A stretch of DNA of 64,000 nucleotides from positions 59 through 64,058 of the forward strand of contig CAYNPY010000001.1 in assembly GCA_964399195.1 (NCBI GenBank). The letters run 5' to 3'. The position numbers and the translations under genes are program-made. Positions 1,586-58,423 of this stretch are shown piece by piece. The notes beneath the pieces were generated by a model, which ran no database searches, was not told where the DNA came from, and worked only from the letters and a program-made list of their open reading frames with translations. How positions within the stretch are numbered: the first letter of the stretch is position 1; each line of letters opens with the position of its first letter. Source of the DNA: an uncultured Fibrobacteraceae bacterium (GTDB taxonomy: Bacteria > Krumholzibacteriota > Krumholzibacteriia > LZORAL124-64-63).

Positions 1586-1879
1586 GCACTCCCGGGGCTG
1601 AGGACGGAAGCGACAAGGGTTGTCGGTCCGCGTACTTTAAGTCGATGCCTCGGGCATCTCAACCGCAAATTGGCCGTTGATCGGGGTTCTCAACCGCTTG
1701 TGGCGCCTCGGCTAAGGCCGGGGCGCGCGCGCGCCCGGCCGCGCGCGGGAGGCGGCGCCGCGGGGCGCCCGCGAATCCCGCTTGCCGCGCGGGCGGCCGC
1801 GGCGAATCATTCGGGGCGCCGCCGGGGGACCGGGCCCCGCCAGGCGCGAGAGGGGAGTCTGCCGGTGCGGTTTCGGGGC

Positions 1880-3418
1880 ATGGGGGCGTGGCGCGGCCGC
1901 TGGCCGCTGCTGGCGGTCGCGGCCTACGCCGCGCTGGGCCTGGTCGTGTCGCTGCGGACGGCGCCGCTGGGCGATCTGGGCGTCGAGGCGGACTTCTTCG
2001 CCGAGCTTGCGCCGGCCGCCCAGGAACTGGCGGCCGGACGATTCGCCGTGGCGAACCACCCGTTCAAGGGGCCGCTGCACGCCTTCGTTCTGGTGCCCGT
2101 CCACGCCGCGCTGGCGCCGCTGGGCGTGGGCTGGTACCGGGCGGCGGTCCTGGTCAGCCTGCTGGCCGCCGCGGGCACGCTCCTTCTGCTGCACCGGCTC
2201 GCGCGTGATCTGGCCGGCCCGCGCGCGGCGGCGGTGGCCCTGGCGGTGGCGGCCGCGCTCAAGGTCTTCTTCATCCACGCCCACAAGGCGGCCTCGGACC
2301 CGCTCTTCGTGCTGCTGGTGACGGCCGCGGCCACGATCCTGCTGACGGGCCGGCCGGGGCCGCGCGCCTGGCTGGGCTGCGGCGCCGCTGCGGGCCTGGC
2401 CTGGCTGGCGCGCGACAGCGGCGTGGTGGTCGCCGCCTGGGCGCTCGTCGTGCTGCTGGCGGTCGATCCCTGGCGCCAGTCCTGGCGGCGCCGGTCGTCG
2501 GCAGCGGCCTGCGTCGCGGGGGGCTTCCTGGCGGCGGCCTCGCCGTGGCTCGTCGCCACGCGCGCGCAGACCGGCGGCTGGCTCGCCTCGCGCAACCTGC
2601 AGAACATCGTCGAGGAGTTCTACGGCGGGGAAACGGCGGCCCGGATCCCCGAGGGCGGCTTCGTCTCCCTCGGCCAGTTGGTGGCGCACGACCCGGGCCA
2701 CTTCGTGACGCATTTCCTGGGCAACCTGCCGCGCCACTTCGTCGCCGACCTCAACCAGGTGACCGGACTGACGTTCGGCGCGCTGGCGCTGGCGCTGCTG
2801 GCGCTGCTGGCGTGGCGACGCCCGGACCGCCGCCAGTGGTCGTACCTGCTCCTGGGCGCGCTCATGTTCACGGCGCTCTGCGCCGTCTTCTACCGGCCGC
2901 GCTTCTCGCTGCCGCTGGTGCCGGTGTGGGCGTTCGCGGTGGCGCTGGCCGTCGAGCGGCTGCCCCGCTGGCGCGGCGCCGTGGCCGCCGTGGTCGTGGC
3001 GGCGGCGGTCACGCTGCACGCCGGCCATGCGGCGCGCGCGGTGCGCTTCTACGCCGCCCAGCAGCCCCGGCACCTGGAGGCGGCGATCGCGGCGGCCCCG
3101 CGCTGGGCGGCGGGCGCGGTCGACGACGACGGGCGCCCGGCCGCGCTCATGGCCCGCAAGGCGCACCTGGCCCACTACGCGGGACTGCGCTTCGTGCCGT
3201 ACCCGCTGATGGCGCGCGACCAGCAGGATCTGGTCGACCGCGCGCGGGCGCGCGGGGCGACGTTCCTGGCCGTCAGCCGCATCGAACGCGAGTACCTGCC
3301 CGAGCCCACGATGCTGGACCGGCTCGACGAGCTGCCCGGGGTCTCGGTGGCATGGCGGGATGCGCAGACGCTGGTCTATCGCGTGCGCGAGGCGCGCCGG
3401 GCCGGCGGCGGCTCCTGA
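1880..3418 (+). CDS. Polytopic membrane protein, putative GT-C fold glycosyltransferase (ArnT/PMT-like)
   Basis: The track ORF begins at 1670, but the hydrophobic protein starts at ATG 1880 (MGAWRGRWPLLAVAAYAALG). It has many TM helices in the N-terminal two thirds and a soluble C-terminal domain. The family assignment rests on architecture only. Confidence 0.55.
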   Translation: MGAWRGRWPLLAVAAYAALGLVVSLRTAPLGDLGVEADFFAELAPAAQELAAGRFAVANHPFKGPLHAFVLVPVHAALAPLGVGWYRAAVLVSLLAAAGTLLLLHRLARDLAGPRAAAVALAVAAALKVFFIHAHKAASDPLFVLLVTAAATILLTGRPGPRAWLGCGAAAGLAWLARDSGVVVAAWALVVLLAVDPWRQSWRRRSSAAACVAGGFLAAASPWLVATRAQTGGWLASRNLQNIVEEFYGGETAARIPEGGFVSLGQLVAHDPGHFVTHFLGNLPRHFVADLNQVTGLTFGALALALLALLAWRRPDRRQWSYLLLGALMFTALCAVFYRPRFSLPLVPVWAFAVALAVERLPRWRGAVAAVVVAAAVTLHAGHAARAVRFYAAQQPRHLEAAIAAAPRWAAGAVDDDGRPAALMARKAHLAHYAGLRFVPYPLMARDQQDLVDRARARGATFLAVSRIEREYLPEPTMLDRLDELPGVSVAWRDAQTLVYRVREARRAGGGS

Positions 3419-4548
3419 AGCGCGAGCAAGGCCAGGCCGTGCATCAGGTCGACGCCGGCCGGCAGCAGCGCGTCGTTGAAGTCGTAGCGTTCGGCGTGCA
3501 GGCCGGGGTGCCGGCGGCCGGCGCCCAGCCCGAACATGGCGCCGCGGCCCAGCCGCGCCAGCGCGCCGAAGTCCTCCGACCAGCGGAACGCGCTCTCGCG
3601 CGGGCGCGCCGCGCGCAGGCCGGCCTGCCGCGCCGCGCGCCGCACCAGCTCCGTCGCCGCCGGGTCGTTGCGGACGACCGGGAAGACCTCCTCCCACGAC
3701 AGCTCGCAGGCCAGACCGTGCCGCCTTGCCGCAGCCCGCGACGCGGCCGCCGCGCGCCGTCGCAACGCCGCCAGCGCGCGGTCGTCGTCCGCGCGCAGCG
3801 TCGCCAGCAGCTCGGCCCGGGCCGGAGCGACGCCGAAGGCCGGCTCGCCCAGCCGCGCGTGCGTGACCGTGACCAGTTCCAGCGGGCCGCCGCCGCCGGT
3901 CGGCAGCGTCACCAGCGCGGTGATGAGTTCGGACAGCGCCCGGTCCGGCGAGCGGCCGCGCTCCGGCTCGGCCGCGTGCGCCGACCGGCCGCGCAGGCGC
4001 ACGCGCAGGCCGGCGCTGCCGGCGGCGAACGCGCCCGGGCGGGTCAGCACGCTCCCCTCGGCGTAGCCGGGCAGGTTGTGCAGGGCGAACAACCAGTCCG
4101 GGCGCAGCGCGCGCAGGCGCGGGTCGGCCGCCACGGCGGCGGCGCCGGCGCCGGTCTCCTCGCTGGGCTGGAACAGGAGCACCAGGCGGCCGCGCGGGGG
4201 CGGGGCCTTCGCCAGTCGGCCGGCCACGCCCAGCAGGATCGCCATGTGGCCGTCGTGCCCGCACTTGTGGGCCACGCCGGGGCGGCGCGAGGCGTGGGCG
4301 AGCGGGATCGTCTCGGGTACCGCCACCGCGTCCAGCTCCGCGCGCAGCAGCACCACCGGGCCGGCCGCGCCGGCGGGCGCGTCCCAGACCGCGGCCGCGC
4401 CGTGGCCGCCGAGGCCCTCGATCACCAGCGCCGGCCGGCAGGCGCGCAGACGCGCCGCGACGAACGCCGCCGTGCGCGCCACCGGGCCCGTCGGCTCGGC
4501 CAGCGCGGCCAGGCGCCGGCGCAGCGCGCGCAGCCCCCGCTCAGCCAT
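3376..4548 (-). CDS. M20D family amidohydrolase (N-acyl-amino acid amidohydrolase / hippurate hydrolase-like)
   Basis: It carries the HKCGHDGH metal-binding motif, which is typical of M20D peptidases, and an FQPSEE motif. The start was chosen at MAERGLRAL, which overlaps the stop of the upstream RND gene by 8 bp. It is therefore probably co-transcribed with the efflux operon. Confidence 0.75.
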   Translation of the reverse strand: MAERGLRALRRRLAALAEPTGPVARTAAFVAARLRACRPALVIEGLGGHGAAAVWDAPAGAAGPVVLLRAELDAVAVPETIPLAHASRRPGVAHKCGHDGHMAILLGVAGRLAKAPPPRGRLVLLFQPSEETGAGAAAVAADPRLRALRPDWLFALHNLPGYAEGSVLTRPGAFAAGSAGLRVRLRGRSAHAAEPERGRSPDRALSELITALVTLPTGGGGPLELVTVTHARLGEPAFGVAPARAELLATLRADDDRALAALRRRAAAASRAAARRHGLACELSWEEVFPVVRNDPAATELVRRAARQAGLRAARPRESAFRWSEDFGALARLGRGAMFGLGAGRRHPGLHAERYDFNDALLPAGVDLMHGLALLALQEPPPARRASRTR

Positions 4549-7500
4549 CGCCGGCCGCCGGCAGGGCGTCACCCGCGCGGGCCGCGGTCCCGCGCCGCCG
4601 CGCGGACCAGCGGCGCCGCGCGCGGGCCAGGCCCCAGCCCCAGCGCGTGAAGGTCCAATAGAGGGCCGGCACCACGCCCAGGATCAGCACGGTGCTCGAG
4701 CCGAGGCCGCCGATCGAGGACAAGGCCAGGTTCTCCCAGATGTCGCGGCCGCCGCCGGTGTCGTGCTTGTAGAGCAGGGGCAGCAGGCCGGCGATGGTGG
4801 TGCCGCTGGTCAGCAGGATCGAGCGCAGCTGGATGCGGACGCCGTCGCAGATCGCCCGCCGCAGAAGGTCCTGCCCGACCGGCGCGGGCAATCGCCACAG
4901 GTCGAACCCGCCCGTGCGCCGGCCGGCCGGGAACAGGCCGCCCGCGCCGCCGCCGTCGGCTGCCGAGCCGGCCGCGAGTTCGCGCACCTGCAGCCGGAAG
5001 CGCTCGACCAGCAGGATCGCGTTGTTGACCACGACGCCGAACATCAGGACCAGCCCGATCCGCGCCGACGAGTCGAACTCGGCGCCCGTGGCCCAGAAGA
5101 TGCCCGCGACCCCGACCAGGGACAACGGGACCGCCAGCATCACCAGCAGCGGCAGCAGCAGGCTCTCGAACATCGCGGCCAGCACCATGAACACGAAGGC
5201 GACGGTCAGCCACAGCGTGCTCCGCAGTTCCGCTTCCTCTTCCTGCGTTACCTGCTGCCCGCTCATGTCCTCGGCCGTGTAGCCGTAGGGCAGCGTGATG
5301 CCGGCGATGATCTCCTCGATGAACTGCCGCCGCATGCGGTCGGTGCCGATGTACTCCCAGTTGAGCAGCTGGCTGTAGCGCTGGTCGTGCCGCTCGATGG
5401 AGCCGATCTCCGGCCGCTGTTCCAGCGAGGCGATGCGACCGAGCTGCACCTTCTGCCCGCGGCTGGTGGTCAGCGTGCGCCCGAGCACCTGATCGTACTG
5501 GATCTGGTCGGCGTCGGCGTAGGTCAGCATCAGCCGCTGGTCCTCGCCGTCGACCACCATGTGCCACGGCGTCTCCACGCCCAGCAGGCGGCGGATGTGG
5601 CCCATCACCTCGGCCATGCTCAGGCGGTGCGCGGCCAGCGCCTGCCGGTCGAGGACCACGACGGTCTCGTCGGTGTCCGAGCGGGTGAACTGGTCGCCGC
5701 TGGTCAGGCGCGCGTTCCGCACGCGCCGGTTGCGGTCCAGGCGGGCCAGCACGCCGTCGCTGATCGCCTTGAGCTCCTTGCTGTTGTAGCCGGTCAGCCG
5801 CACGGTCGAGTTCGCCATGCCGCCGCCGCGCCCGCCCTTCATGTACGGGTCGCCGAAGCCGTTGATCCAGATGAACATGCCGCCCAGTTCCTCGGCCAGC
5901 ACGATCACGCGGTTGCGGAACAGCTCGGGCCAGGCGGTGGCCAGCAGCTCGTCGTCGAACTCGATGAACATCCAGGCGCGGTTGCCGGCGGCGCCGCTGC
6001 GCAGGTGGACGCCGTCGGGGACCGGCAGCACCTCCTGCTCGAACAGGCGGATCGTCTCGCTCGACAGCTTCACGTCGGTGCCGGTGGGCTGCTCCAGGAA
6101 GACGATGATCTGCTCCCTGGCGGCCGGCTGCCAGAACCCGCCGGTGCGCACCTTCTCCTTGAAGACCCAGACCGTGCCGGCGCCCAGGGCCACCGTCAGC
6201 GCCAGAGGCACGTACCAGATCCGCAGGCTCACCCGGGTCAGCGCGCCGGCCCAGGCCACGAAGGCGCCGACGGCCACGAGCAGCGCGGCGCCGCCGCCGG
6301 CCCAGGGCAGGGCGCGCCGCAGCGTGCCCGGGTCCTTCCAGAAGTGGATGACCGCGAGCGCGGCCGCGGCCAGCAGCGCCGTCCCCAGCGTCCACCGCCA
6401 GAACAGGGACCGGCCCGTCAGGCCGAACTCGTCGCCGCCGGCCCGCGAGCGGCGCAGTTCGCGCTCGGCCGGCCCGCGCAGGCTGACGGGGATCCAGGCG
6501 AAGGCGACCAGGATCGAGGCCAGCATCGCGATGCCGACGCTGACGGCCAGCGGAACATAGAAGAGCGACAGGCGATCGGTCAGGAAGATGAACGACAGGA
6601 AGGCCACGACCGTGGTGAGGGTCGTGGCCAGGATGGGGAAGGCGACCTCGCGCGTGCCCTCGAGGAGCGCCTGACGGCTGCTGGTGTCGCGCCCGCCGGA
6701 CAGGCGCCGGTGGATGGCGTCGAGCGCCAGGATGCTGTTGTCCAGCAGCATCCCGAAGCACACGGTCAGGCCGCTGATCGTGATGAAGTTGACCGTGACG
6801 CCGAAGAAGTAGAACAGCGACAGGCAGATCACGATCGCCAGGAGGATCGAGGCGATGACGATCGCCACCAGGCGCAGCCGCCGCAGCGCCAGCGCCAGCA
6901 GCGCGAAGAGCAGGCCCAGGATGACCAGCGAGCGCGTCACCAGCTCGCGCAGCTTCTCCTCGAGGTCGGCGCCCTCGTCCTGGTCCACCTCGAACTCGAC
7001 GGGGAACGGGGACTCGGCGCCGACCTTCGGCAGTTCGGCCCGCAGGCGGCGGCTGATCGAGATGGAGTTCTGGCCGCTGCGCTTGGTGACCAGCAGCGTG
7101 ACGACGTTGCTGCCGTCGATGCGGCTGTAGTAGGCGATGTCCTCGAAGGAAGGCTCCACCTCGGCCACGTGGCGCAGCGTCACCGGCTGCCCGCCGCGCA
7201 CGGCCAGCACGGTCGCTCCCAGCGTGCGCGCGCTGGCGGTGTCGCGCACGCTGACCGCCAGCTCGCGGCCGTGGCGCCGGACCGATCCGGCGGGCAGCAG
7301 GTCGTCGCGGGCGTCGAGCCTGGCCGCCACGGCGTCGGCCGTCAGTTGGTAGCGCTCCAGCTTCTCGAGGTCGAGGCGGATCTTCAGCAGGGGGCGGGCG
7401 CCGCCGCGCAGTTCGGCGTCGGCCACGCCCTCGATCGACAGGAAGCGCGGCACGATCCAGTCCTCGGCCCGGTCGCGCAGCTCGTTGATGTCCAGCGGCG

Positions 7501-7936
7501 AGATCAGGCTGACCGAGAAGAACTCCTCAGTCCGCACCTCCTGCGGCACATAGGGACGGATGAACGGCTGGCCCGCCTGCGGCGGCAGCGCGCGCCGCAC
7601 GGCGCCCAGGCGCTCGGAGAGCTCCAGGCGCGCGAATTCCATGTCCGTGCCGCGCTTGTACTTCACGGTGACCGTGCTCTGGTCGTGGCGCGACGTGGAC
7701 TCGACGTCCTCGACGCCGTGGCAGCCGGCCACCGCCTCCTCGATCGGCAGCGTCACCGCGCGCTGGATGGCGCTGGGCGAGGCGCCGTTCCAGCCGGTCA
7801 CGATCGACAGTTCGGGCAGTTCCGTCTCGGGCATCGCCTCGATATCGAGGTGCGGCACCGCGTACAGCCCGGTGACCAGCAGGGCGCCGAAGAGCATCGC
7901 CGTCGAGACGGGGTGGTCCACCGCGAAGCGGATCAT
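4541..7936 (-). CDS. RND efflux transporter permease (HAE1-like), 1131 aa, with extra transmembrane insert
   Basis: It shows the AcrB/MdtC family architecture: TM1 plus a large periplasmic loop, repeated twice. It has an insert of about 110 aa with three additional hydrophobic segments between TM6 and the second periplasmic loop, and a C-terminal tail of about 40 aa. Confidence 0.85.
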   Translation of the reverse strand: MIRFAVDHPVSTAMLFGALLVTGLYAVPHLDIEAMPETELPELSIVTGWNGASPSAIQRAVTLPIEEAVAGCHGVEDVESTSRHDQSTVTVKYKRGTDMEFARLELSERLGAVRRALPPQAGQPFIRPYVPQEVRTEEFFSVSLISPLDINELRDRAEDWIVPRFLSIEGVADAELRGGARPLLKIRLDLEKLERYQLTADAVAARLDARDDLLPAGSVRRHGRELAVSVRDTASARTLGATVLAVRGGQPVTLRHVAEVEPSFEDIAYYSRIDGSNVVTLLVTKRSGQNSISISRRLRAELPKVGAESPFPVEFEVDQDEGADLEEKLRELVTRSLVILGLLFALLALALRRLRLVAIVIASILLAIVICLSLFYFFGVTVNFITISGLTVCFGMLLDNSILALDAIHRRLSGGRDTSSRQALLEGTREVAFPILATTLTTVVAFLSFIFLTDRLSLFYVPLAVSVGIAMLASILVAFAWIPVSLRGPAERELRRSRAGGDEFGLTGRSLFWRWTLGTALLAAAALAVIHFWKDPGTLRRALPWAGGGAALLVAVGAFVAWAGALTRVSLRIWYVPLALTVALGAGTVWVFKEKVRTGGFWQPAAREQIIVFLEQPTGTDVKLSSETIRLFEQEVLPVPDGVHLRSGAAGNRAWMFIEFDDELLATAWPELFRNRVIVLAEELGGMFIWINGFGDPYMKGGRGGGMANSTVRLTGYNSKELKAISDGVLARLDRNRRVRNARLTSGDQFTRSDTDETVVVLDRQALAAHRLSMAEVMGHIRRLLGVETPWHMVVDGEDQRLMLTYADADQIQYDQVLGRTLTTSRGQKVQLGRIASLEQRPEIGSIERHDQRYSQLLNWEYIGTDRMRRQFIEEIIAGITLPYGYTAEDMSGQQVTQEEEAELRSTLWLTVAFVFMVLAAMFESLLLPLLVMLAVPLSLVGVAGIFWATGAEFDSSARIGLVLMFGVVVNNAILLVERFRLQVRELAAGSAADGGGAGGLFPAGRRTGGFDLWRLPAPVGQDLLRRAICDGVRIQLRSILLTSGTTIAGLLPLLYKHDTGGGRDIWENLALSSIGGLGSSTVLILGVVPALYWTFTRWGWGLARARRRWSARRRGTAARAGDALPAAGDG

Positions 7937-7949
7937 GGCGCCCGCCCCC

Positions 7950-10900
7950 TCAGTCCCAGCGCCGGTCGGTGCGGCGGTGGGCCAGCTCGTACAGGGCCGG
8001 CGTCATGAACAGGGTCAGCACCGTGGACAGGCCCAGGCCGCCGATGATCGTGATGGCCAGGGGCCGCTGCATCTGGTCGCCGGTGCCCAGGCCCAGCGCC
8101 ATCGGCAGCAGGCCGACGATGGTGGTCACGGTGGTCATCAGGATCGGCCGCAGGCGCCGGCGGCTGGCCTCCAGCAGCGCCGCCCGGCCGCCGTAGCCCT
8201 CGGCGCGCAGGTCGCGCACGGTGGCCACCTTGACGATGGCGTCGTTGACGTCCACGCCGAGCAGGGCGATCAGGCCGATCAGCGACATGATGTTCAGCGA
8301 CTGGCCGGTGATCGCCAGCGCCGCCAGCGCGGACGCGATGCCCACCGGCAGCACGGCCGTGACGATGAACGGGTCCAGGAAGCTCTCGAACTGCGCGGCC
8401 AGGATCATGTACACCAGCACGCAGGAGAGCAGCAGCGCCCAGCCCAGCGAGCGGAAGCTGGCGTTGATCTCCTCCTGCTCGCCGCCCGCCACGAAGGAGA
8501 CGCCGTCCGGCGTATCCAGCCCCGCCAGCAGCGGCCTGACCTCTGCCCAGGCCTCCGCCACCGAGCGCCCCTCGACGTCGCCGCTGATCGTCACCTGGCG
8601 CCGCTGGTCGCGGCGGACGATCTCGCGCACCGGGATGCCCTCGCTGGCGCCGACGAACGACGCCAGCGGGACCGTCTTGCCGTCGGGCAGGCGCACCGGC
8701 GAGCCCAGCACGAGGTCCAGGTCGTGGCGCTGCTGGCGCGGCAGGCGCACGGCGATGTCGATGCGCTGCTCGATCTCGTTGTAGGTCGTCGCCACCGTGC
8801 CCTGCACGCGGTCGCGCAGCTCGCGGGCCAGGGCGTCGGGCTCCAGGCCGTGCCGCAGCGCCCTCTCGCGGTCGACCGCGATCTCGACCGTCGGGTTGCC
8901 CAGCACGCGCTCGACGTCGACGCTGCCCAGTCCGGGCACGCGGCGCAATCGCGGCAGCAGCGAGCCGGCCACGGCCACGGCCTCGGCCGGATCGTCGGCC
9001 ACGACGCCCAGCGTGAAGGCCGCCTCGCCGCTGGCCATCACCTCGCGCAGGCCCACGCCCTCCTCGGCGAAGGCCCAGGTCGTGCCGGCCAGGGCGTCCA
9101 GGCGCGGCTGCAGGCGCTCGCGCACGGCCTCCAGGTCCCGCCTGCCGTGCCGGGTGGGCACCAGCATGACGCGCAGGCGCGCCGTGTTGGCCGCGCTGTA
9201 CTCCTTGAGGCTGGCCAGCGTGCGCTCGGTGACGCCCACCTGCGTGTACACCGAAGCCACCTCCGGCTGGCGCGCCAGGAACGCCGCCAGATCCGCCGCC
9301 GTGCTCTCGGTCAGTTCCAGCGGCGTGCCGGCCGGCAGTTCCACCGCCAGCGTGAAGTCGCCGCGGGAGCGCTCGGGCATGAACGTGCGCGGCAGCCCCA
9401 GGCCCAGCCAGGCCGCGGCGGCGACGCCGGCGGCCAGGCACGCCAGGAACGGCGCCTTGCGCGCCAGCACCCGCTCCAGCGCCGCGTGGTAGCGCTCGGA
9501 CATCGCCTCGTACAGGCGGTCGAACGGGCGCAGCAGCCGCGGCGGCCGGTCCGGCGGCGTCGAGAGCAGACGGGCCGAGAGCATCGGCTGCAGCAGCACC
9601 GCCGTTAGGATCGAGACCAGCAGCGCGATGGTCACCGTCAGCGCCTGGTCCCGGAAGAAGGCCCCCGCGATGCCGGGCACGTAGATCACCGGGAAGAACA
9701 CGGCCACCGTGGTCAGCGTGGCCGCCACCACCGGCATGGCCACCTCGCGCGTGCCGGCCGCGCACTCGTCCGGGATCGAGGCGCCCGTGCGCAGCCCCAG
9801 CCGCCGGTTGATGTTGTCGAGCACGACGATGGAGTTGTCCACGAGCATGCCGGCGGCCAGCGACAGGCCGCCGAGGCTCATCAGGTTCAACCCGACCTTG
9901 GCGAAGTAGAGGAAGGCGAACGTGGCCAGCACCGACACCGGAATCGCCAGCCCGACGACCACCGGGCTGCGCCAGTCCTTCAGGAACAGGTAGAGCACGA
10001 CGAACGCCAGCAGCGAGCCGTAGACCAGCGAGCTCTGCAGCCCCTCGAAGCTCTCCTGCACGAAGTCGGCGTCGCGGTAGATGAAAGCGTGCCGGAACGC
10101 CGGGTACTGCGTGGAGAGGACCGCGAGCACGCGGTCGATCTCCTCGGTGGTGCGGATCGTGTTCTCGCCGATCTCCTTGTAGAGGTGCAGCGAGACCACC
10201 TCGCCGCCGTCGTGCAGCGTGAAGCCCTCCGGCTCCTTGATCGTGTCGCTGACCTGGGCCACGTCGCCGATGGTGATGCCGGCGCCGGCGGCGGGGATCT
10301 CCGTGCGGCGGATCTCGTCGAGGTTCTCGAACTCGCCCAGGATGCGCAGGGGCAGGTGCAGCGGGCCCTTGCGGATGCGCCCGCCCGGGAAGCTGATGTT
10401 CGCCACGCGCAGCGCGTCAGCCAGGTCGCCCATGTCCAGGCCGTACAGGCGCAGCTTCGCGAAGTCGGGGCTGACCAGGATCTCGCGCTCGGCGCCGCCG
10501 ACCAGTTCGGCCTGGCTGACGCCCTGGATCTGCTCGAGCGCCGGCTTGACCACCTCGCGCGCGAACTCGGTCATGCGCGCCAGCGGCTCGTCACCGCGCA
10601 GGACCATGATGGCGATGGGCCGCGCCGACGGGTCCCAGCGCAGGATCAGCGGCCGGTCGGCGCCGGCCGGGAAGTCGTCGCGGAACGAGACGCGGTCGAT
10701 CGCCTCCCGCAGGTGCAGGTTGGCGAAGTCCATCCCCGTGCCCCAGTCGTATTGCACGGTGATCGTGGAGACGCCTTCGCGCGTCCGCGAAACGACGCGG
10801 CGCACGCCGGCCAGGCCGGTGATCACTTCCTCGAGCGGCTGGGTGACCAGCCGTTCGAGGTCCTCGGCCGGCGCGTCGGCCCAGTTGGTGATGACCGTCA

Positions 10901-11027
10901 GGTTCGGGTAGTTGATGGCCGGCAGCAGGTCCACGGGCAGGCGTTCGCGCGCCTGCCAGCCGATCAGCACCAGGCCCAGGAAGAGCATCAGGACGGCAAC
11001 GGGCCGCCGGACCGCGGCGGCGATCAT
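7950..11027 (-). CDS. RND efflux transporter permease, 1025 aa
   Basis: The track ORF starts at 11207, but the real N-terminus is MIAAAVRRPVAVLMLFLGLVLIGW at 11027. Its ATG overlaps the stop of the MFP gene by 4 bp. It has the canonical 12-TM RND layout. Confidence 0.85.
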   Translation of the reverse strand: MIAAAVRRPVAVLMLFLGLVLIGWQARERLPVDLLPAINYPNLTVITNWADAPAEDLERLVTQPLEEVITGLAGVRRVVSRTREGVSTITVQYDWGTGMDFANLHLREAIDRVSFRDDFPAGADRPLILRWDPSARPIAIMVLRGDEPLARMTEFAREVVKPALEQIQGVSQAELVGGAEREILVSPDFAKLRLYGLDMGDLADALRVANISFPGGRIRKGPLHLPLRILGEFENLDEIRRTEIPAAGAGITIGDVAQVSDTIKEPEGFTLHDGGEVVSLHLYKEIGENTIRTTEEIDRVLAVLSTQYPAFRHAFIYRDADFVQESFEGLQSSLVYGSLLAFVVLYLFLKDWRSPVVVGLAIPVSVLATFAFLYFAKVGLNLMSLGGLSLAAGMLVDNSIVVLDNINRRLGLRTGASIPDECAAGTREVAMPVVAATLTTVAVFFPVIYVPGIAGAFFRDQALTVTIALLVSILTAVLLQPMLSARLLSTPPDRPPRLLRPFDRLYEAMSERYHAALERVLARKAPFLACLAAGVAAAAWLGLGLPRTFMPERSRGDFTLAVELPAGTPLELTESTAADLAAFLARQPEVASVYTQVGVTERTLASLKEYSAANTARLRVMLVPTRHGRRDLEAVRERLQPRLDALAGTTWAFAEEGVGLREVMASGEAAFTLGVVADDPAEAVAVAGSLLPRLRRVPGLGSVDVERVLGNPTVEIAVDRERALRHGLEPDALARELRDRVQGTVATTYNEIEQRIDIAVRLPRQQRHDLDLVLGSPVRLPDGKTVPLASFVGASEGIPVREIVRRDQRRQVTISGDVEGRSVAEAWAEVRPLLAGLDTPDGVSFVAGGEQEEINASFRSLGWALLLSCVLVYMILAAQFESFLDPFIVTAVLPVGIASALAALAITGQSLNIMSLIGLIALLGVDVNDAIVKVATVRDLRAEGYGGRAALLEASRRRLRPILMTTVTTIVGLLPMALGLGTGDQMQRPLAITIIGGLGLSTVLTLFMTPALYELAHRRTDRRWD

Positions 11028-12373
11028 CGGCTTTCCGCGCCGGCGTCCGGCAGCGCCGCGGCCGCGAAGTCCCAGCGGTCGTCCGGCGGCACCCGCCGAC
11101 GGACGGAGATCTTCGCCTCGTGGGCCAGCGTCAGGTGGTCGCTGACCACCACCTCCTGCCCGGCGTCCAGGCTGCCGCCGCTGTGGACGGCCAGGATCTC
11201 CACCCACTGGTCGTTCTGCAGGCCGGTGTCGACGTACAGCCAGCGCGCGCGGTCGTCCTCGCGCTTGAAGACCAGCGGGCGATTGTCGCGCACCAGCACC
11301 GCGTCCTTGGGCACCAGCAGGCGGTCGCGGTAGACCACGCCGGCGATCTGCGCGCGCACGAACATGCCGGGGCGCAGCCGGCCGTCGGGGTTGGCGAAGC
11401 GGATCAGGATCTCGCAGGTGCGGCTGGCCTGGTCGAGCGTGGGGGAGATCACGTCCACCTTGGCGCGCAGCGTGTCGCCGGTCGCGGCCACCGCCAGCAG
11501 CACGGGGCGCCCCACGGCCAGATCGCGCAGGTCGGCCTCCAGCACGTTGACTGCTGCTTCGAGCCGGTCGTTGTTGGTCACCGCGCAGACCTGCGCGCCG
11601 GCGGCGAGGATCTCGCCGACGACCATCGCCAGGCCCTGCACGACGCCGTCGAAGGGAGCGCGGATCTCGGTGTACTCCAGGTTCAGGCGCGCCCGCTCCT
11701 CGGCCAGGCGCGCCTCGGCCAGGCCGGTGCGCTGCTGGAACACGGCCTCGCGGAAGGCGCCGTCCTGGAGCGCGCGCTTCTCCAGGTCGAGCAGCTGTGT
11801 CCGGTAGTCGTCGCGCGCCATTTCGCCGCGGTCGTGCGCGGCGGCGAGCCGGTCGCGCTCGGCCGCGAAGGCGGCGACGGCCGTCGCGTTGGTCGTGAAG
11901 GTGTCGCCCTCGGCCGCCATCTGGCTCAGCGCCGCCAAGTGGCGGTAGCGGCTCTCCTCCAGCGCCAGTTCGTACTCCCGCGGGTCGATGCGCGCCAGGA
12001 CCTGCCCGCGCCGGACGCGGTCGCCGTCGCGGACCCGCACCTCGAGCAGCGGGCCGCCGACCTTGGTCTTGACCGCGGCCGAGCGCGGCGTGCGGATCGC
12101 GCCGTCGGCGTAGACCGGCAGGACCAGATCGCCCCGCCGCACCTCGCCGACGTTCACCTTGATCGACTTCTCCTTCGCGGGCTCCTCCTCGGCGGCCTCG
12201 CCGGCCGCCGCCGCGCTGGAATCGGCGCCGGCCGCCGCGGTCGAATCGGCCGCCGCGCCGCCGCCGCCGCCGCGGCAGCCGGCCCAGGGCAGCAGCAGGA
12301 CGAACAGGAAGGCCGCCAGGAGCACGGCCGGCGCCGCGGCTCGCGCGGCCTGCAGGGGAGAAGATTGCGGCAT
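11024..12373 (-). CDS. RND efflux membrane fusion protein (HlyD/AcrA family periplasmic adaptor), lipoprotein
   Basis: A signal peptide plus lipobox (LLLPWAGC) are followed by coiled-coil, lipoyl and beta-barrel MFP domains (VPKDAVLVRDNRPLVF...). It is translationally coupled to the downstream RND gene. Confidence 0.85.
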   Translation of the reverse strand: MPQSSPLQAARAAAPAVLLAAFLFVLLLPWAGCRGGGGGAAADSTAAAGADSSAAAAGEAAEEEPAKEKSIKVNVGEVRRGDLVLPVYADGAIRTPRSAAVKTKVGGPLLEVRVRDGDRVRRGQVLARIDPREYELALEESRYRHLAALSQMAAEGDTFTTNATAVAAFAAERDRLAAAHDRGEMARDDYRTQLLDLEKRALQDGAFREAVFQQRTGLAEARLAEERARLNLEYTEIRAPFDGVVQGLAMVVGEILAAGAQVCAVTNNDRLEAAVNVLEADLRDLAVGRPVLLAVAATGDTLRAKVDVISPTLDQASRTCEILIRFANPDGRLRPGMFVRAQIAGVVYRDRLLVPKDAVLVRDNRPLVFKREDDRARWLYVDTGLQNDQWVEILAVHSGGSLDAGQEVVVSDHLTLAHEAKISVRRRVPPDDRWDFAAAALPDAGAESR

Positions 12374-12395
12374 GTCCGGCCTTCCGTCGGGATGG

Positions 12396-13613
12396 TTACG
12401 ATTCCAGCTTGTAGCAGGTGATCTCGAGGTCGCTGCCTTCCTCCTCGGCGCCGCCGGCGACCGCCTGCTGGCTCAGGAACGAATCCAGGGCCCCGGTCAC
12501 CACGACCAAGCGGCCGTCGCGCAGGACGAACACGGCGTCCTGCTGCGGGTCGTGCGGACCGGGCAGCGCCACCTGCTGCTCGAACGTGCCGTCGGGAGCG
12601 AAGACGTCCAGCATGCACCAGGTCCCCTTGGGCCGTCCGGGCTGCTCGTCGCCGGTCAGCACCCACACGCGACCGTCGTCGGTGGCCCACAGGCCGGCCA
12701 CGGCCGGGGCCGTGTTCTCGACGGTGATCCGCTTCGGTCGCGTGGGGTAGTTGGCGCCGATCGCCTCGAGGATGCGCCGGGCCTGCTCCTTCTGCGCCGC
12801 GGTGCGCGGGGGCGACTGGTAGGCGCGCGTGAACTCCCGGACCGGCTGACCGTCGGGCGCGTAGGCGCGGATGCGGTACTCGTTCCGCTCGGGCGCCACG
12901 AAGAGGCGGCCGTCCGGCGTGCCCGCCAGGCGCTGCCAGACGAAGTCCATGCCCATCTCGTCCAGCGCGAAGTCTGCGTAGTCCACGCGGTAGGGCTTGG
13001 CCAGCAGCTGCTGGCGGCGCGCGCCGTCGGGGCCGCACAGGGACAGGAAGTACTCCTGGTCGCTGACCGACGAGCCGCCGAAAGTCATCGTGATGCCGGC
13101 CAGGACCATGCCGCCGGGGTGGGGCAGTCCGCGGATCAGCACGGCGAACTGCCCGGCGCCGGGCTGGCCGGTGCCGTACTTCGCCTCGCCGGCGGGCGTG
13201 CCGTCGGCCTTCACCTTGACGACACGGCCCGGGAAGCCCTGCAGCAGGCAGATCGCGCCGTCGCCCGCGATGAACATGTCGCCGGGCCTGCGGACCTCGC
13301 CGGGGCCGTCGCCCTCGCGCGCCAGGGTGCGCACCAGCGCGCCGTCGGGTCCCAGGACCTTGACCTCGGACAGGCGCGTGTCCAGCACCAGCGCCTGGCC
13401 GCCGGGACCGGCGAGCACCGCCGAGGCCGCGCCGAAGAACACGTCGTCGCTCTCGCCGCCGCGCGACCAGACCTCGGTCAGCTTGGCGGTGCGGACGCCC
13501 TTGGCGGGCTTGGCGGGGTTCTGCACGACCGGCGGCGCCGCCACGGCCGAGGTGGTCAGCAGCGCCAGGAGCACGGCCGGCGCCAGCCGCCGGAACTTGC
13601 GGGGGTTCTCCAT
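12396..13613 (-). CDS. Secreted hypothetical beta-propeller protein
   Basis: It has an N-terminal signal peptide (LLALLTTSAVAAPP) and repeated G-x-F / DG-x-[LV] blade-like segments. It ends 22 bp before the MFP start. Confidence 0.5.
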   Translation of the reverse strand: MENPRKFRRLAPAVLLALLTTSAVAAPPVVQNPAKPAKGVRTAKLTEVWSRGGESDDVFFGAASAVLAGPGGQALVLDTRLSEVKVLGPDGALVRTLAREGDGPGEVRRPGDMFIAGDGAICLLQGFPGRVVKVKADGTPAGEAKYGTGQPGAGQFAVLIRGLPHPGGMVLAGITMTFGGSSVSDQEYFLSLCGPDGARRQQLLAKPYRVDYADFALDEMGMDFVWQRLAGTPDGRLFVAPERNEYRIRAYAPDGQPVREFTRAYQSPPRTAAQKEQARRILEAIGANYPTRPKRITVENTAPAVAGLWATDDGRVWVLTGDEQPGRPKGTWCMLDVFAPDGTFEQQVALPGPHDPQQDAVFVLRDGRLVVVTGALDSFLSQQAVAGGAEEEGSDLEITCYKLES

Positions 13614-13794
13614 GGGGGATCCTTTCAGCCGGGCGCGCCCGGACGGATGGCGAGTCTACACGCCCGGTCCACTTCTTCTTCATGCCGCGTGAGGCGGCGG
13701 CCAGGCCCCGGCGTCCCCGCCGGAGACGCCGGGGCACCATACGGAGCCGGCGCCGACGGGTTGCCGTCCCGCCGCCGGGGCCGGGCGCCCCGGT

Positions 13795-15918
13795 TCAGCG
13801 GCCGGCGCCGGCCGCGGCCAGCGCAGCTTCCCACAGGCAGACGCGATCGGCCACCTGCGTGAAGGCGGCGCCGCCCGCCACGTCGATCGACTGCAGTTGC
13901 CAGCCGCGCGCCCGCAGTGCGGCGCCCAGCGCGCGGCCGCCGCCGGCGGCGGCCGTTTCCTGCCTGCACTCCACCCACGTGACCGGCAGCCCCGGCGGGG
14001 GCGGCGGCACCGCGCGGTCGGCCGGCCAGGGTCCGAGCGCGCCGCCGACGAACAGCTGCAGTCCCGCCAACGGAGGCTGGCCGCCGGCGGCCAGCTCCAG
14101 CGCGGGCGCCACGGCCGTCAGTTGCGCGGCCAGCAGGCCGGCGCCGGCGCCGAAGCGGGCGCCGGCCCAGCGCAGGCAGGCGTCAAGCTCGTCGGCGCGG
14201 TCGGCCGCAGCCGGCGCGATCACGAACACCGGCCAGACCTCGCGCCCGCCCGCCGCCGGCAGCGCGCCGTCGCCGCCCGCGGCCAGGAAGCGCAGCACGC
14301 GCTCGGCCAGGCGCGGCGCGTCCGCCTCGGGATGGCCGGCCAGGACCACCGGGCGCAGCGGCGCCTGCGGCGGCCGGCCGGGCGGCAGCACCAGACGGCA
14401 GAGCCGGTCGGCGCCGCCGGGCCCCGGGTAGACGAAGGGCGCCAGACCTTCCTCCGGCAGCAGCGACCCGGACTGCCCGAACCGCGCGAGCATGAGGTTG
14501 AGGTCCGCCAGCGTCGTGGCCAGGGCGCCCGGGTCGCGGCGCCCGCGATGGGCCTCCACCGCGGCCTCGATGCGCTCGAGGAAGTAGCGGGCGGTGGGCT
14601 GTTCGTCGGGCGGCAGCGGCCTGATGGCGTCGAGGTAGGCGGTCTGCCAGTCGGGACCCAGGTTGAGCAGCCAGGTCGCCCACTCGACGCGCTGGCCGCC
14701 GGGCAGCACCAGCCCGGCGCTCACGTGGCACGGTCCCGGCCGCAACCGGCCGAAGTCGACCGCCCGGTTCAGGCGCGTGACGCCGGCATCCAGAGCAACG
14801 TCCTGCGGTCCGGCGGCCTCGGCGGGCAGCAGCGGGTTGCCGTCGCTGTCGCTGAAGGCGAGGGTGAGCGTCCCGGTGCCGGCCGCCGCGCTGACGGCCA
14901 CGAGATTCACGGCCACCTGGCCGCCCTTGACCAGGGTGGCGGACGTGCGGCCGGCGAACGAACCCGGCGCGGCTGACGCCGTCTCGCACTCCAGGCGGGC
15001 GGTCAGGTGCCGCGCTTCGCCGGCGCGCGCGAGCACGCGCGCGGGCATCAGGCGCGGGCCCGGACTCCCGCCGCGGCCGACCAGCGCCACGTTCAGGCCC
15101 AGCTCGGCGTCGACCAGCGGGTGGTAAGGGGCCAGCGCGGTCCACGGGATCGAGACGTCGATCACCAGGCGGTCGCTGCCGGCGCCGCGGATCTTGGGCG
15201 CCAGTTCGCGGACCCGCTGCCAGGCGCCGACGGCCGGCAGGAAGACAGCGCCGACGCCGGCGTTCTTCTCCAGGCCGAAGCCGAAGACGAAGGCGTCGGC
15301 CGTCTCGCCGGAGCCGTCGCCCGCAGCCGGGCCCAGCACGACCAGCAGGCCGCCGCTCCCGCTCCAGGGCGCCGCCTCGCCGGCCGGCAGCCAGCGGCCG
15401 CGCTCGTCGGGAGCCTCCAGGCGCAGTTCCAGGTGCGAGGAACGCCAGGTCACCGTCACCCGTGATCCGTCCGGCGCGCCGTCGCCGGGAGCGGGCTCCA
15501 GCGGGAGCGTCGCGGCCACGCCCTCGACGAGCCGGACGCCCCGGCGCGCGCTCATCTGCGCGCGGCGCTCCCTTTCGTCGGCCAGCAGGCGCGCGAGCCG
15601 GGGCGCCGCGTCGCCCAGGCGCAGATCGGGATCGGCGGTCGCGTGCGCCAGGTCGTCGTAGCCCGCCGCCAGAGCGGCGCGCAGCGAGGCGACCGCGCGA
15701 TCGCCGTGGCCGAGCCGGTTCTCCAGGCAGGCCTGGTTGTACAGGAGCAGCGGGTCGCCGGGCCGGGCCGCCAGTTCCCGCTGCAGCGCGGCCAGCGCCT
15801 CGGCCACGCGCCCGGCCCGCTGCAGTTCGGCGACGCTCTCGGTCTGCGGCGCCGACGCCGGAGCGGACGCGGCCGCCACGAGGGCGGCGAACAACAGCAG
15901 CTGCGCGAGACGTCTCAT
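13795..15918 (-). CDS. Secreted hypothetical protein with N-terminal TPR-like region and C-terminal putative alpha/beta-hydrolase-like domain
   Basis: The track ORF extends to 16146, but the signal peptide begins at MRRLAQLLLFAALVAAASAPASA (15918). The product is about 707 aa. The domain assignment is weak. Confidence 0.5.
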   Translation of the reverse strand: MRRLAQLLLFAALVAAASAPASAPQTESVAELQRAGRVAEALAALQRELAARPGDPLLLYNQACLENRLGHGDRAVASLRAALAAGYDDLAHATADPDLRLGDAAPRLARLLADERERRAQMSARRGVRLVEGVAATLPLEPAPGDGAPDGSRVTVTWRSSHLELRLEAPDERGRWLPAGEAAPWSGSGGLLVVLGPAAGDGSGETADAFVFGFGLEKNAGVGAVFLPAVGAWQRVRELAPKIRGAGSDRLVIDVSIPWTALAPYHPLVDAELGLNVALVGRGGSPGPRLMPARVLARAGEARHLTARLECETASAAPGSFAGRTSATLVKGGQVAVNLVAVSAAAGTGTLTLAFSDSDGNPLLPAEAAGPQDVALDAGVTRLNRAVDFGRLRPGPCHVSAGLVLPGGQRVEWATWLLNLGPDWQTAYLDAIRPLPPDEQPTARYFLERIEAAVEAHRGRRDPGALATTLADLNLMLARFGQSGSLLPEEGLAPFVYPGPGGADRLCRLVLPPGRPPQAPLRPVVLAGHPEADAPRLAERVLRFLAAGGDGALPAAGGREVWPVFVIAPAAADRADELDACLRWAGARFGAGAGLLAAQLTAVAPALELAAGGQPPLAGLQLFVGGALGPWPADRAVPPPPPGLPVTWVECRQETAAAGGGRALGAALRARGWQLQSIDVAGGAAFTQVADRVCLWEAALAAAGAGR

Positions 15919-16163
15919 CCGCGGTGGCTCCTTGCCCGGGGACCGGCGGGGGCGGGCCCGGCGCCGTGCAACCCCCGGCCGGAGTATACGGTTCCGCGGC
16001 CGGCGCCGGCCATCACGTTGTCGGTTCGCCGCTTTTCCTGTATGATGAGAGCCACAGCCTGGTCCAACGATCCATCGCACTCGCGCCGCGCATCCCCGGA
16101 TGCCGCGGCTCCGGCACGAACGGCGGCTCCGCCGGGAAGCCGCCACGGCGAATCGAGGACACC

Positions 16164-17096
16164 ATGGCGATCATCCCCTTCCACATCGTCGATGCGTTCG
16201 CCTCGCGTCCGTTCACGGGCAACCCCGCCGCGATCATCCCGAACGCGTCGTGCCTGACCGAGGCCGAGATGCTGCAGATCACCGGCGAACTGTCGATGGA
16301 GGCGGGCTTCGTGCTGCCGCCGGAGAACCCGCGCGCGGACCTGAAGCTGCGCTTCTTCACGCGGCGGCGCGAGGCGGCCCTCAGCGGCCACGTCGTGATC
16401 GCGGCCTTCGCCTCGATGGCCGACCGCGGCTTCTACCGGCCCACGCCCGAGGGGGTCGACCTGGTGGTCGAGACCGGCGCCGGCATGCTGCCGGTGCGCC
16501 TGCAGCAGGCCGCCGACGGCCAGGCGCTGGTCACGTTGCGCCTGCCCCGGCCGCGTTTCGGCGAGCTGGTTCCCGCGGCCGAGGTGGCGGCCGCCCTCGG
16601 CGTGCCCGAGGCGATGATCGGCCTGGACGGCTGCGGGCCGCAGCGCGTCAGCTGCGGATTCGACCAGGTGGTGGCGCCGGTCTGCGACCGGCAGGCGATC
16701 CGCGGCGCGGTGGGTTCCATCGCCGCGATCGGCGACCTGATCGACCGCCGCGGCGTGGGCGGGCTGACGCTGTTCTGCCCGGACACCTACGGGCAGGCGG
16801 CTGATTTCCACTGCCGCTTCTTCCACCCGCGCGTCGGCGCCGACGAGGACGTGGCCAGCGGCACCGCGCTCGGGGCGGTGGCCGCGTACGTCGTGGAGCG
16901 CGGGCTGCTGCCGGCCGCCGAGCACGTGCGCATGGTCACCGAGCAGGGGCATTCGCTGGGCCGGCCGAACCTGGCCGAGTTGACGGTGCACGCGCCGGCC
17001 GGCAAGGTCGCGGCGGTCGACCTGACCGCAGGCGGCGCCGTGGTGATGCGCGGTTCGTTCCACTTCCAGCGTCAAGCGGCCGTGGTCGGCGCCTGA
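16164..17096 (+). CDS. PhzF family phenazine-biosynthesis-like isomerase
   Basis: The protein starts MAIIPFHIVDAFASRPFTGNPAAII and has the characteristic PhzF/DapF-like fold motifs. Its ATG at 16164 lies inside the longer track ORF 15462..17096. Confidence 0.8.
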   Translation: MAIIPFHIVDAFASRPFTGNPAAIIPNASCLTEAEMLQITGELSMEAGFVLPPENPRADLKLRFFTRRREAALSGHVVIAAFASMADRGFYRPTPEGVDLVVETGAGMLPVRLQQAADGQALVTLRLPRPRFGELVPAAEVAAALGVPEAMIGLDGCGPQRVSCGFDQVVAPVCDRQAIRGAVGSIAAIGDLIDRRGVGGLTLFCPDTYGQAADFHCRFFHPRVGADEDVASGTALGAVAAYVVERGLLPAAEHVRMVTEQGHSLGRPNLAELTVHAPAGKVAAVDLTAGGAVVMRGSFHFQRQAAVVGA

Positions 17097-22606: not shown

Positions 22607-23770
22607 ATGTCCAGGAAACTGCGCCGCATCGCGATCCTGACCGGGGGCGGCGACGTGCCGGGCCTCAACGCGGCCATCAAGCAGGTCGTCACCAGGGCCA
22701 AGAACGAGGGCATCGCGGTCGTGGGCATCCGCCGCGGCTGGGGCGGGCTTATCAACTACCGGCCCGAGGCCGACGAGGACTGGAACCGCCACTGGCGGAC
22801 GGAGCTGGACTGGACCCATGTGCGGACCATCGACCGCACCGGCGGCACCTTCCTGCACACCTCGCGCACGAACCCGGGCCGGGTGAAGGAGAAGGACATG
22901 CCGGAGCACCTGCACCGGCCCGACCGCTCCTACCCGGCTGACCTGACCGACGTCGTGGTGGCGAATCTCGAGCACCTCCAGATCGACGCGCTGGTCCCCA
23001 TCGGCGGCGACGACACGCTCAGCTACGCGGCGCGCCTGCACCAGGCGGGCTACCCGCAGGTGGCGATCCCCAAGACGATGGACAACGACGTCTACGGGAC
23101 CGACTTCTGCATCGGGTTCAGCACGGCCGTGACGCGTTCGGTGCAGGCCATCAGCGACCTGCGGACGCCGATCGGCTCGCACGAGCGCATCGGCCTGGTC
23201 GAACTGTTCGGACGCAACAGCGGCGAGACCTGCCTCGTCTCCAGCTACCTGGCGCACGTCGACCGCGCGGTCATCAGCGAGGTGCCGTTCGACATCGAGC
23301 GCCTGGCCGAGATGATCAACCGCGACAAGCGCGACAACCCGAGCCACTACGCGATGGTCACGATCAGCGAGGGCGCCGTCCCCCACGGCGGGGGCATCGT
23401 CGAGACCGGCGAGGAGGACGCCTACGGCCATCGCAAACTGGGCGGCGTCGGCATGTGGGCGGCCGAGCAGCTGAAGAGGCTGACCGGGCACGGCATCACC
23501 TACCAGCAGCTCGGCTACATGATGCGCTGCGGCGCTCCCGACGCGCTGGACCGCATGGTGGCCATGAACTTCGGCAACCTGGCGATGGACCTGCTGCTGG
23601 AGGGCCGCACCGGCCTGATGACGGCGCTGCGCGACGGCCGCTACGCGGCGGTGGACCTGGCGGCCATCACCAGCGGCGTCAAGCGCGTGGACGTCGCCCG
23701 CTTCTACGACCCGCGCGAGTACCGCCCGGTCATCCGCGGCGTCGAGGCGCTGCCGATGTTCCTGCGCTGA
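22607..23770 (+). CDS. pfk: 6-phosphofructokinase (ATP- or PPi-dependent)
   Basis: The product is [17 protein letters not shown] with GGDDT and PKTMDNDV motifs. A GGAGGA RBS lies upstream. Confidence 0.85.
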
Positions 23771-23849
23771 GCGCCAGACCGCTCCGCCACCGAGCGCCCG
23801 CGCCTTCTGGCCGCTGGACGGCGCGGGCGCGGGCGCGTATGCTCCCGCA

Positions 23850-26821: not shown

Positions 26822-26925
26822 CGGGCCGCCGCCCGGGCCAGCGCGAGGCAGTGGACGGGGATCGCCCGCGGCCTTATCGTCCCTGTCCCGGCCGCGTGCC
26901 CCCGGAACCCCGAAAGGACGACACC

Positions 26926-27905
<980 letters not shown>

Positions 27906-27909
<4 letters not shown>

Positions 27910-44605: not shown

Positions 44606-44682
44606 GCGGCTCCGGCGCGGGTCGGCGCCGGCCGGCCGCGCCGCCGGCGGGCCGGCCCGGCCGCCGCCTGACGGGAGCCCGC

Positions 44683-55961: not shown

Positions 55962-56046
55962 CGCGGCTGCGGCCGCCACGCGAACCGCCGCGCCCCGCGC
56001 GGCCCGACAGGAGCCGGGTCCCGACCCGGGAAAGGCCAAGAGCGAC

Positions 56047-58400: not shown

Positions 58401-58423
58401 CGGAACAGCCGTCGGTCCTGGCC

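Follow-up and report, generated by a model that had tools for sequence, protein, structure and literature searches.

Do two adjacent genes for resistance–nodulation–division (RND) permeases behind a single adaptor gene encode one pump made of two different subunits, and does the amidohydrolase gene that follows them belong to it? The question is raised by a gene cluster on the minus strand of the window analysed here, a 64-kb stretch (64,000 nucleotides (nt); all positions refer to it) of contig CAYNPY010000001.1 (assembly GCA_964399195.1) from an uncultured bacterium of the Krumholzibacteriota. In order of transcription, its six open reading frames (ORFs) encode a secreted protein with tetratricopeptide repeat (TPR)-like helices, a predicted NHL-type propeller, a membrane fusion protein (MFP) lipoprotein as periplasmic adaptor, two RND permeases (RND-1 and RND-2) and an M20D amidohydrolase. 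We favour, with a probability of roughly 60%, the reading that the cluster is a lineage-specific two-RND efflux module in which RND-1 and RND-2 form a heterotrimer that works with one adaptor, an unlinked outer-membrane factor (OMF) and periplasmic accessory proteins. The M20D gene is a clade-restricted accessory neighbour that stands outside this conserved machine.

Two RND genes behind one adaptor

All six minus-strand ORFs placed here by the initial annotation were recovered, each with a codon-position bias like that of real genes, in a region of approximately 73–79% G+C. Reading the sequence directly bore out the proposed gene order and the tightness of the last three junctions (−4, +13 and −8 nt): the MFP and RND-1 genes share an ATGA overlap, the TGA of RND-1 is followed by 13 nt and the ATG of RND-2, and RND-2 overlaps the M20D gene by 8 nt (ATGGCTGA), or by 32 nt if the latter starts at a GTG at 4572. 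Further upstream, the gaps are 22 nt from the propeller gene to the MFP gene and 181 nt from the gene for the TPR-like protein to the propeller gene. A promoter and terminator scan of positions 3000–16600, which is uninformative for a GC-rich, non-proteobacterial genome, showed nothing promoter-like on the minus strand and a chance-level number of terminator-like matches, and an Rfam scan of the cluster gave no match at E ≤ 1.

Both permeases are AcrB-like members of the RND superfamily (PF00873). RND-1 (7950–11027; 1,025 amino acids (aa), 12 transmembrane (TM) helices) matched the family profile with 751 bits over profile positions 1–1020, and RND-2 (4541–7936; 1,131 aa) matched it in three stretches with 437.6 bits. 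An AlphaFold model of RND-2 built from 75 family members (pLDDT 74.9, pTM 0.60) shows a complete AcrB-like fold, periplasmic domains included, and superposes on AcrD, AcrB, BpeF and CusA with Foldseek TM-scores of 0.63–0.75. The single adaptor in front of the two adjacent RND genes (11024–12373; 449 aa) is of the RND_mfp family found in tripartite systems, as it scored 180 bits against TIGR01730 (cut-off 94.9), matched HlyD_D23, HlyD_3 and lipoyl-like domains, and carries a lipobox-like PWAGC motif behind a hydrophobic leader.

A scan of species-representative genomes yielded 145 relatives, and the best 80 of these 145 loci were examined with 10-kb flanks. The order propeller(s)–MFP–RND-1–RND-2 was found in essentially all loci whose flanks were long enough, including those with an RND-2 as little as 47% identical, and the related loci carried metagenome-assembled genome (MAG) labels of Krumholzibacteriia, Eiseniibacteriota, Latescibacterota and Fermentibacteria. 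The module thus belongs to the Krumholzibacteriota and allied candidate phyla (Eisenbacteria, Latescibacterota and Fermentibacteria-labelled MAGs). RND-1 and RND-2 were adjacent in 63 of the 65 loci whose upstream side could be judged, with a median gap of −4 nt (range −4 to 78 nt in the 63 loci) and usually an ATGA overlap. The genes for RND-1, RND-2 and the MFP are the best conserved of the region: all three show 70–75% identity in related loci where the propeller shows 45–55% and the TPR-like protein 32–38%, and MFP identity across related loci spans 45–91%. Near-universal pairing and the ATGA overlap point to an obligate two-RND pump analogous to MdtB2C; by this analogy, RND-1 and RND-2 would assemble into one heterotrimer, as MdtB and MdtC do, and be served by the single adaptor.

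To our knowledge, heteromeric RND pumps are confined to the proteobacterial Mdt/Mux lineage and are thought to derive from one ancient duplication. The cluster resembles MdtABC–TolC of Escherichia coli, MuxABC–OpmB of Pseudomonas aeruginosa and SmeIJK in having one MFP gene and two adjacent RND genes, with the OMF gene often elsewhere; here, coupling between the genes is tight, and of the two RNDs it is the second that has diverged further. The comparison with MdtBC-type pumps in the initial annotation was apt as an architectural analogy (63 of 65 pairs) but did not hold by descent. RND-1 and RND-2 are 28% identical to each other, whereas MdtB and MdtC are 50% identical; RND-1 shares 26% identity with MdtB or MdtC, and RND-2 shares 21%. 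The equivalog models for MdtB and MdtC (cut-offs 1,584 and 1,774 bits) gave 373 and 392 bits for RND-1 and 222 and 190 bits for RND-2, so that neither is an orthologue of MdtB or MdtC. The Mdt duplication has been reported as single and as lying inside the Proteobacteria (PMC7015380), two-RND pumps are treated as rare (PMC7015380, PMC8277102, PMC12802153), and MdtB2C has been described as active only as a heterotrimer, with labour divided between its subunits (PMC4462101, PMC12802153). Given the equivalog scores, the identities and the reported place of the Mdt duplication, the pair in the window is an architectural analogue of MdtBC of independent origin, outside the Mdt family. Unlike MdtBC, it comes from candidate phyla of the Fibrobacterota–Chlorobiota–Bacteroidota (FCB) type, is non-orthologous and more diverged, carries additional TM helices and a cytoplasmic insertion in RND-2, and belongs to a module that includes secreted propeller genes. 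The literature on Krumholzibacteriota RNDs, DUF5128, 14-TM RNDs and heterotrimeric RND pumps held no description of this system. A second, independent and far more diverged two-RND system would be a natural comparison for asking why pumps need two RND subunits.

The initial annotation had also drawn attention to the missing TolC-like gene. This absence held throughout the 64-kb window, in which hidden Markov model (HMM) and jackhmmer searches built from E. coli TolC, CusC and MdtP and run on every ORF of 150 aa or more in the six frames found no TolC-like gene, and Pfam scans of another 36 large ORFs outside the cluster found no OEP domain. As a telling feature it carries no weight: a missing OMF gene is ordinary, because E. 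coli acrAB and mdtABC likewise have no linked one. The same search detected OMFs in four related loci (L080, L065, L028 and L051), which shows that it is sensitive enough, that these lineages possess OMFs and that the OMF is unlinked to the module; an OMF-like ORF lay within 10 kb in these 4 of 86 related loci, mostly in other operons. The pump would use an outer-membrane channel encoded elsewhere in the genome. One locus (L028, from an Eiseniibacteriota MAG) has an OMF-like ORF (15720–17426 of that locus) on the same strand approximately 1.2 kb downstream of RND-2, and is the sole case in which the OMF might belong to the pump operon.

Extra helices and relay residues of RND-2

RND-2 shares with the homotrimeric pumps AcrB, AcrD and CusA the 12 core TM helices and the two large periplasmic loops, which hold the porter and docking subdomains, but is 17–22% identical to them and differs by two more predicted TM helices, an insert of approximately 30 aa between TM10 and TM11, and a C-terminal tail. 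The additional helices fall in the stretch that links TM6 to the second periplasmic loop (residues 509–594; window positions 6155–6412), where hydropathy analysis gave three hydrophobic segments (511–534, 542–568 and 571–592) in RND-2 and one hydrophobic helix only in RND-1. The AlphaFold model has helices at 509–533, 536–561 and 563–594 (local pLDDT approximately 70–85), the first two of which are predicted to form an extra TM hairpin (509–561) and the third to be the equivalent of TM7, giving 12 + 2 = 14 TM helices. The loop charges fit an in–out–in–out path, with a loop at 534–541 that is mixed or acidic family-wide and a loop at 566–572 with conserved T567 and R572. Where the initial annotation had described a three-helix insert of approximately 110 aa, the three helices at this site and the total of 14 are retained; the segment from TM6 to the loop measures 116 aa, and the net insertion relative to RND-1, AcrB, MdtB and MdtC is approximately 50 aa (41 + 9 alignment columns) and adds two helices. 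The extended cytoplasmic loop and the long C-terminal tail that had also been ascribed to RND-2 were both seen in alignments. The loop is that between TM10 and TM11, where the conserved, family-specific insert (within residues 989–1025; 4862–4972) carries the motif P-x3-R-x-G-x2-D-L-W-R-L-P (LVPAKxRLGGxDLWRLP), and the C-terminal helix and tail are longer in the alignment and in the AlphaFold model.

An assembly or sequencing artefact as the source of the insert was ruled out by three assemblies and by homologue lengths. The identical 1,131-aa protein occurs on contigs of three independent sequencing runs and assemblies, and among 5.8 billion proteins searched, more than 120 clusters were homologous at 58–90% identity, the best 120 of which, labelled Krumholzibacteria, Eisenbacteria and similar, are nearly all 1,103–1,180 aa long. 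Five entries are shorter (909–1,085 aa); these align with only 80–95% of the query, and NCBI marks four of the five as partial. The linker from TM6 to the loop is approximately 116 aa in 57 members of the RND-2 family. Nine deeper-branching members (47–49% identity) have a linker of 81–82 aa with a single hydrophobic helix while keeping the synteny, the cytoplasmic loop motif and a periplasmic GYNSK motif, and the extra hairpin is thus a derived insertion within the family.

The three-helix arrangement is not unique to RND-2. An exhaustive search with RND-1 collected 13,579 proteins at E ≤ 1 × 10−30, and approximately 12 of the 140 representatives that were aligned, all unrelated to the family, have at least three hydrophobic segments at the same site. 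Distant uncharacterized RNDs of this set (P0145, P0147, P0172, P0242, P0259, P0282, P0167 and P0211) have 2–5 extra hydrophobic segments at the TM6–TM7 junction. This junction is a recurrent insertion hot spot for membrane helices in RND proteins, a feature that is absent from current reviews, and RNDs with more than 12 TM helices seem, from such predictions, to be a recurrent and undescribed theme.

Neither permease has the AcrB-type proton relay of D407, D408, K940 and R971. At the equivalent positions, RND-1 has D397, N398, N928 (followed by D929, with K933 nearby) and R958, which are conserved in 63–65 of 65 orthologues. RND-2 keeps the aspartate at the D407 position and, unlike AcrB, has N400 for D408, N971 (followed by N972) for K940 and Q1036 (window positions approximately 4829–4831) for R971. 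These residues are nearly invariant within each of the two families, and the pair differs from MdtBC (DD / K) in having D-N / N-D or N-N. Among the 140 representatives, D-N/N-N/R-R was the commonest pattern (60 of 140), and that of RND-1 occurred in 19. A dead proton relay in RND-2 (N400, N971/N972 and Q1036) was therefore downgraded as an explanation, as an uncharged asparagine pair in TM10 is common in distant single RNDs. Judged from these alignments, the relay patterns of both permeases are clade variants that give no evidence of inactivity, and the sole distinctive relay change in RND-2 is that from R971 to glutamine.

R971 is essential in AcrB. Glutamine stands at its position in all 57 long-linker RND-2 proteins, whereas the short-linker proteins have arginine (8) or cysteine (1). 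The gain of the hairpin and the change to glutamine probably represent one evolutionary event, such that their correlation is not statistically independent; their co-occurrence is suggestive of a functional link. The best NCBIfam model for both permeases is NF033617 (RND_permease_2), with 609 bits for RND-1 and 405 bits for RND-2, both below the cut-off of 1,250. Many of the metagenomic transporters of this type have the D-N / N-N / R-R pattern and approximately 12 of 140 have extra TM6–TM7 segments; unlike them, the RND-2 family has a fixed pairing with its paralogue, the LGGxDLWRLP loop motif and the specific change from R971 to glutamine. The two subunits are clearly asymmetric: only one of them has additional TM helices and a cytoplasmic insert, and the same one has lost the R971 equivalent. 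These differences would make a division of labour within RND trimers directly testable.

It is unlikely, but deserves serious weight, that RND-1 and RND-2 are instead two independent homotrimeric pumps that share an adaptor gene and a promoter and differ in substrate, as AcrB and AcrD do with AcrA. Both proteins keep a complete AcrB-like fold, their relay patterns are common in single RND relatives, and MdtB has also been reported to form homotrimers (PMC12802153). Several further points weigh against our reading of a single complex. The case for a heteromer comes from gene linkage, and the idea of a dead relay failed because the asparagine pair in TM10 is the majority state among distant single RNDs. 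Two loci have RND-2 without an adjacent RND-1, which also favours independent pumps: in one (L056, 7228–11917), the sole such case, the MFP gene is directly followed by RND-2, inside which the contig ends; in the other (L065, 9031–13656), an RND-2 homologue is followed by an M20 gene and has no MFP, RND-1 or propeller gene of its own. The recurrence of M20 adjacency in two deep branches of one clade (L026 and L035), finally, may reflect a functional link between the M20 enzyme and the pump within that clade. Two independent pumps fit poorly, however, with adjacency in 63 of 65 loci across several phyla, mostly with an ATGA overlap, as a fixed 1:1 coupling and order over such divergence are typical of the subunits of one complex; the absence of an R971 equivalent from all long-linker RND-2 proteins also argues against a self-sufficient RND-2. 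As for the second of the two exceptional loci, its RND-2 and M20 genes adjoin a divergently oriented, conventional MFP–RND–OMF operon, and the arrangement is either a rearrangement or a co-assembly chimera.

The M20D amidohydrolase

The last gene of the cluster (3376–4548; 390 aa from the ATG at 4548) encodes a member of the M20D subfamily, with 184.5 bits against TIGR01891 (cut-off 153.75), 102 bits against PF01546 and a match to the dimerization domain PF07687. Its relatives in the PDB include 4EWT (Staphylococcus aureus), 1XMB, ILL2, 1YSJ, YxeP (Bacillus subtilis) and N-acyl-glutamine aminoacylase, the closest solved relatives being cytoplasmic N-acyl-amino-acid hydrolases. The enzyme has the family signature and dimerization domain of known M20D amidohydrolases (4EWT, YxeP, plant ILR1-like enzymes and N-acyl-glutamine aminoacylase), but unlike these it fits no equivalog model (DoeB2, 132 bits against a cut-off of 550; CpsA, 121 against 500) and lies next to an RND pump. 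We know of no description of a link between M20D enzymes and RND pumps. Beyond the M20D gene, the window holds succinate dehydrogenase/fumarate reductase (sdh) genes on the minus strand (flavoprotein, 1–975; cytochrome b, 866–1636) and, convergent on the plus strand, a PMT_2-type glycosyltransferase gene (1670–3418) whose 3′ end overlaps that of the M20D gene by 43 nt.

In the window genome, the M20D gene would almost certainly be co-transcribed with the pump, because there is no intergenic space between it and RND-2. The initial annotation proposed a survey for conserved RND–RND–M20 synteny; this survey upheld the RND-1/RND-2 pair (63 of 65 loci) and not the third gene. In 10 of 69 loci, every one of them in a single Krumholzibacteriia clade, RND-2 is directly followed by an M20 gene on its own strand; the M20 gene lies 1–6.5 kb downstream behind opposite-strand genes in five further loci. 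Of the 34 loci with 9 kb or more of sequence downstream, 9 have it within 10 kb, and in most of the remaining loci none was found within the downstream sequence at hand (at least 9 kb in these 34). In a neighbour-joining tree of RND-2, adjacency is patchy within its one clade, and the other clades are without M20. The family-wide adjacency to RND-2 that marks an integral member of the pump operon is thus missing.

Within that clade, the loci with an adjacent M20 gene span 51–90% RND-2 identity and include deep branches (L026 and L035). In another locus (L092), the M20 gene lies 6.5 kb from RND-2 with opposite-strand genes between them, and therefore has its own promoter there; it adjoins sdh genes, as in the window. 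A recent deletion that brought M20 beside RND-2 is thus a partly tenable explanation, with the last locus for it and the adjacency in the two deep branches against it. Going by its occurrence on these branches, the adjacency may be ancestral to the clade.

These data also bear on a possible export-and-processing system in which the translationally coupled M20 enzyme would act on the transported molecule, be it a peptide, an envelope precursor or a siderophore-like metabolite, for instance by removing an acyl group from a precursor prior to export or by salvaging an N-acyl amino acid. We consider such a system improbable, even though the stop codon of RND-2 and the start codon of M20 overlap by 8 nt, adjacency recurs in 10 loci that reach into deep branches, and the M20D metal-binding motifs in the translation look intact. 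Most loci have no M20 gene or have it at a distance, it is wholly absent from all other clades that keep the pump, and where it is displaced by 6.5 kb it has its own promoter and stays with the sdh genes. No signal peptide was found in the M20 protein, which is hence cytoplasmic, and AcrB-type pumps are generally held to take up what they transport on the far side, in the periplasm or in the outer leaflet of the inner membrane. A peptide or siderophore-like substrate, as the initial annotation had suggested, found no support either, as Pfam scans of the window ORFs revealed no biosynthetic or TonB-type genes, and the Rfam scan no riboswitch or other regulatory RNA in the cluster.

Secreted proteins and other genes of the window

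The propeller gene (12396–13613; 405 aa) encodes a secreted protein that is probably a six-bladed propeller of the NHL/DUF5128 type. The protein gave no Pfam match, aligned with PDB entries for NHL propellers across one or two blades (E = 3 × 10−7) and matched the ScyF NHL model weakly; its orthologues in three loci (L086, L092 and L093) carry PF17170 (DUF5128). A propeller is present in 51 of 55 loci, as one copy in 21, two in 26 and three in 4, arranged in tandem where there is more than one; the window has a single copy. Tandem copies were seen at positions 1770–5522 of L092 and upstream of the MFP gene in L007, L008 and L011.

The first gene of the cluster (13795–15918; 707 aa) encodes a protein with no useful sequence match in Pfam or the PDB, and what is known of its domains comes from an AlphaFold model (pLDDT 86, pTM 0.74). 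An N-terminal signal peptide is followed by TPR-like helices (29–126), two beta-sandwich domains (128–419), a helical linker and an alpha/beta-hydrolase-fold domain (491–705), and Foldseek matched single domains to RbmA-like sandwiches and to the catalytic domains of S9 peptidases and feruloyl esterases. The label 'TPR/hydrolase-like' from the initial annotation is accurate for the fold but not for catalysis: a Ser-Asp-His triad with a GxSxG elbow is missing, the position of the nucleophile elbow reads LLAAQxxAVAP with an invariant Q599, and no conserved serine or histidine was found in this domain among 21 homologues. The C-terminal domain thus probably does not work as a serine hydrolase. 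Homologues of the 707-aa protein are encoded upstream in 32 of 51 loci, and its gene and that of the propeller are both conserved in the pump neighbourhood.

With a propeller in 51 of 55 loci and a TPR-like gene in 32 of 51, the dedicated function proposed by the initial annotation is a better fit than generic drug efflux. Under the two-RND reading, the periplasmic propeller(s) and the TPR-like protein would act as accessory or substrate-handling factors, and the substrate would probably come from the cell itself, as an envelope or metabolic compound, and not be a drug. A bolder version, which we hold to be doubtful, makes RND-2 an obligate specialized subunit of a heterotrimer independent of MdtBC, in which the hairpin and the loss of the R971 equivalent in TM11 would re-wire or replace proton coupling, RND-1 would energize the complex and RND-2 would handle the substrate, and the complex, with the propellers and the TPR/pseudo-hydrolase protein, would export an endogenous envelope component on which the Krumholzibacteriota and related phyla depend. 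It is very unlikely that the pump does not span the envelope and hands its substrate to the propeller(s) and the TPR-like protein, as an envelope-biogenesis exporter with a logic like that of MmpL3/HpnN: 82 of 86 loci have no linked OMF gene, secreted propellers and an apparently non-catalytic, binding-type multi-domain protein are conserved upstream, and the RND and MFP sequences are as highly conserved as in a housekeeping function, but MmpL/HpnN-type exporters have neither full porter and docking regions nor an MFP, whereas both RNDs here keep these regions in full (approximately 1,150 columns aligned with AcrB) and the MFP that goes with them has a long helical segment. In many tripartite pumps, the OMF gene is as a rule unlinked. 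The practical impact of the two-RND module is limited, as the organisms are uncultured.

Elsewhere in the window, SecD and SecF genes (53928–56982) are the other members of the RND superfamily and are unrelated to the efflux cluster. A MoxR-type AAA ATPase gene followed by a gene for a BatA/VWA protein (26641–30922) resembles an aerotolerance (Bat) operon. Two large ORFs with strong coding bias have no Pfam match (23622–25547, plus strand, 641 aa; 42869–44698, minus strand, 609 aa). The far end (57097–63998, minus strand) is occupied by a cluster of very large multihaem c-type cytochromes: an ORF that runs off the end of the window (61011–63998) has 19 paired-CXXCH matches and MtrC/MtrF-like domains, and is accompanied by an NHL-repeat protein (59713–60732) and two further CXXCH proteins (57097–59716). 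The domain content of this cluster suggests a capacity for extracellular electron transfer.

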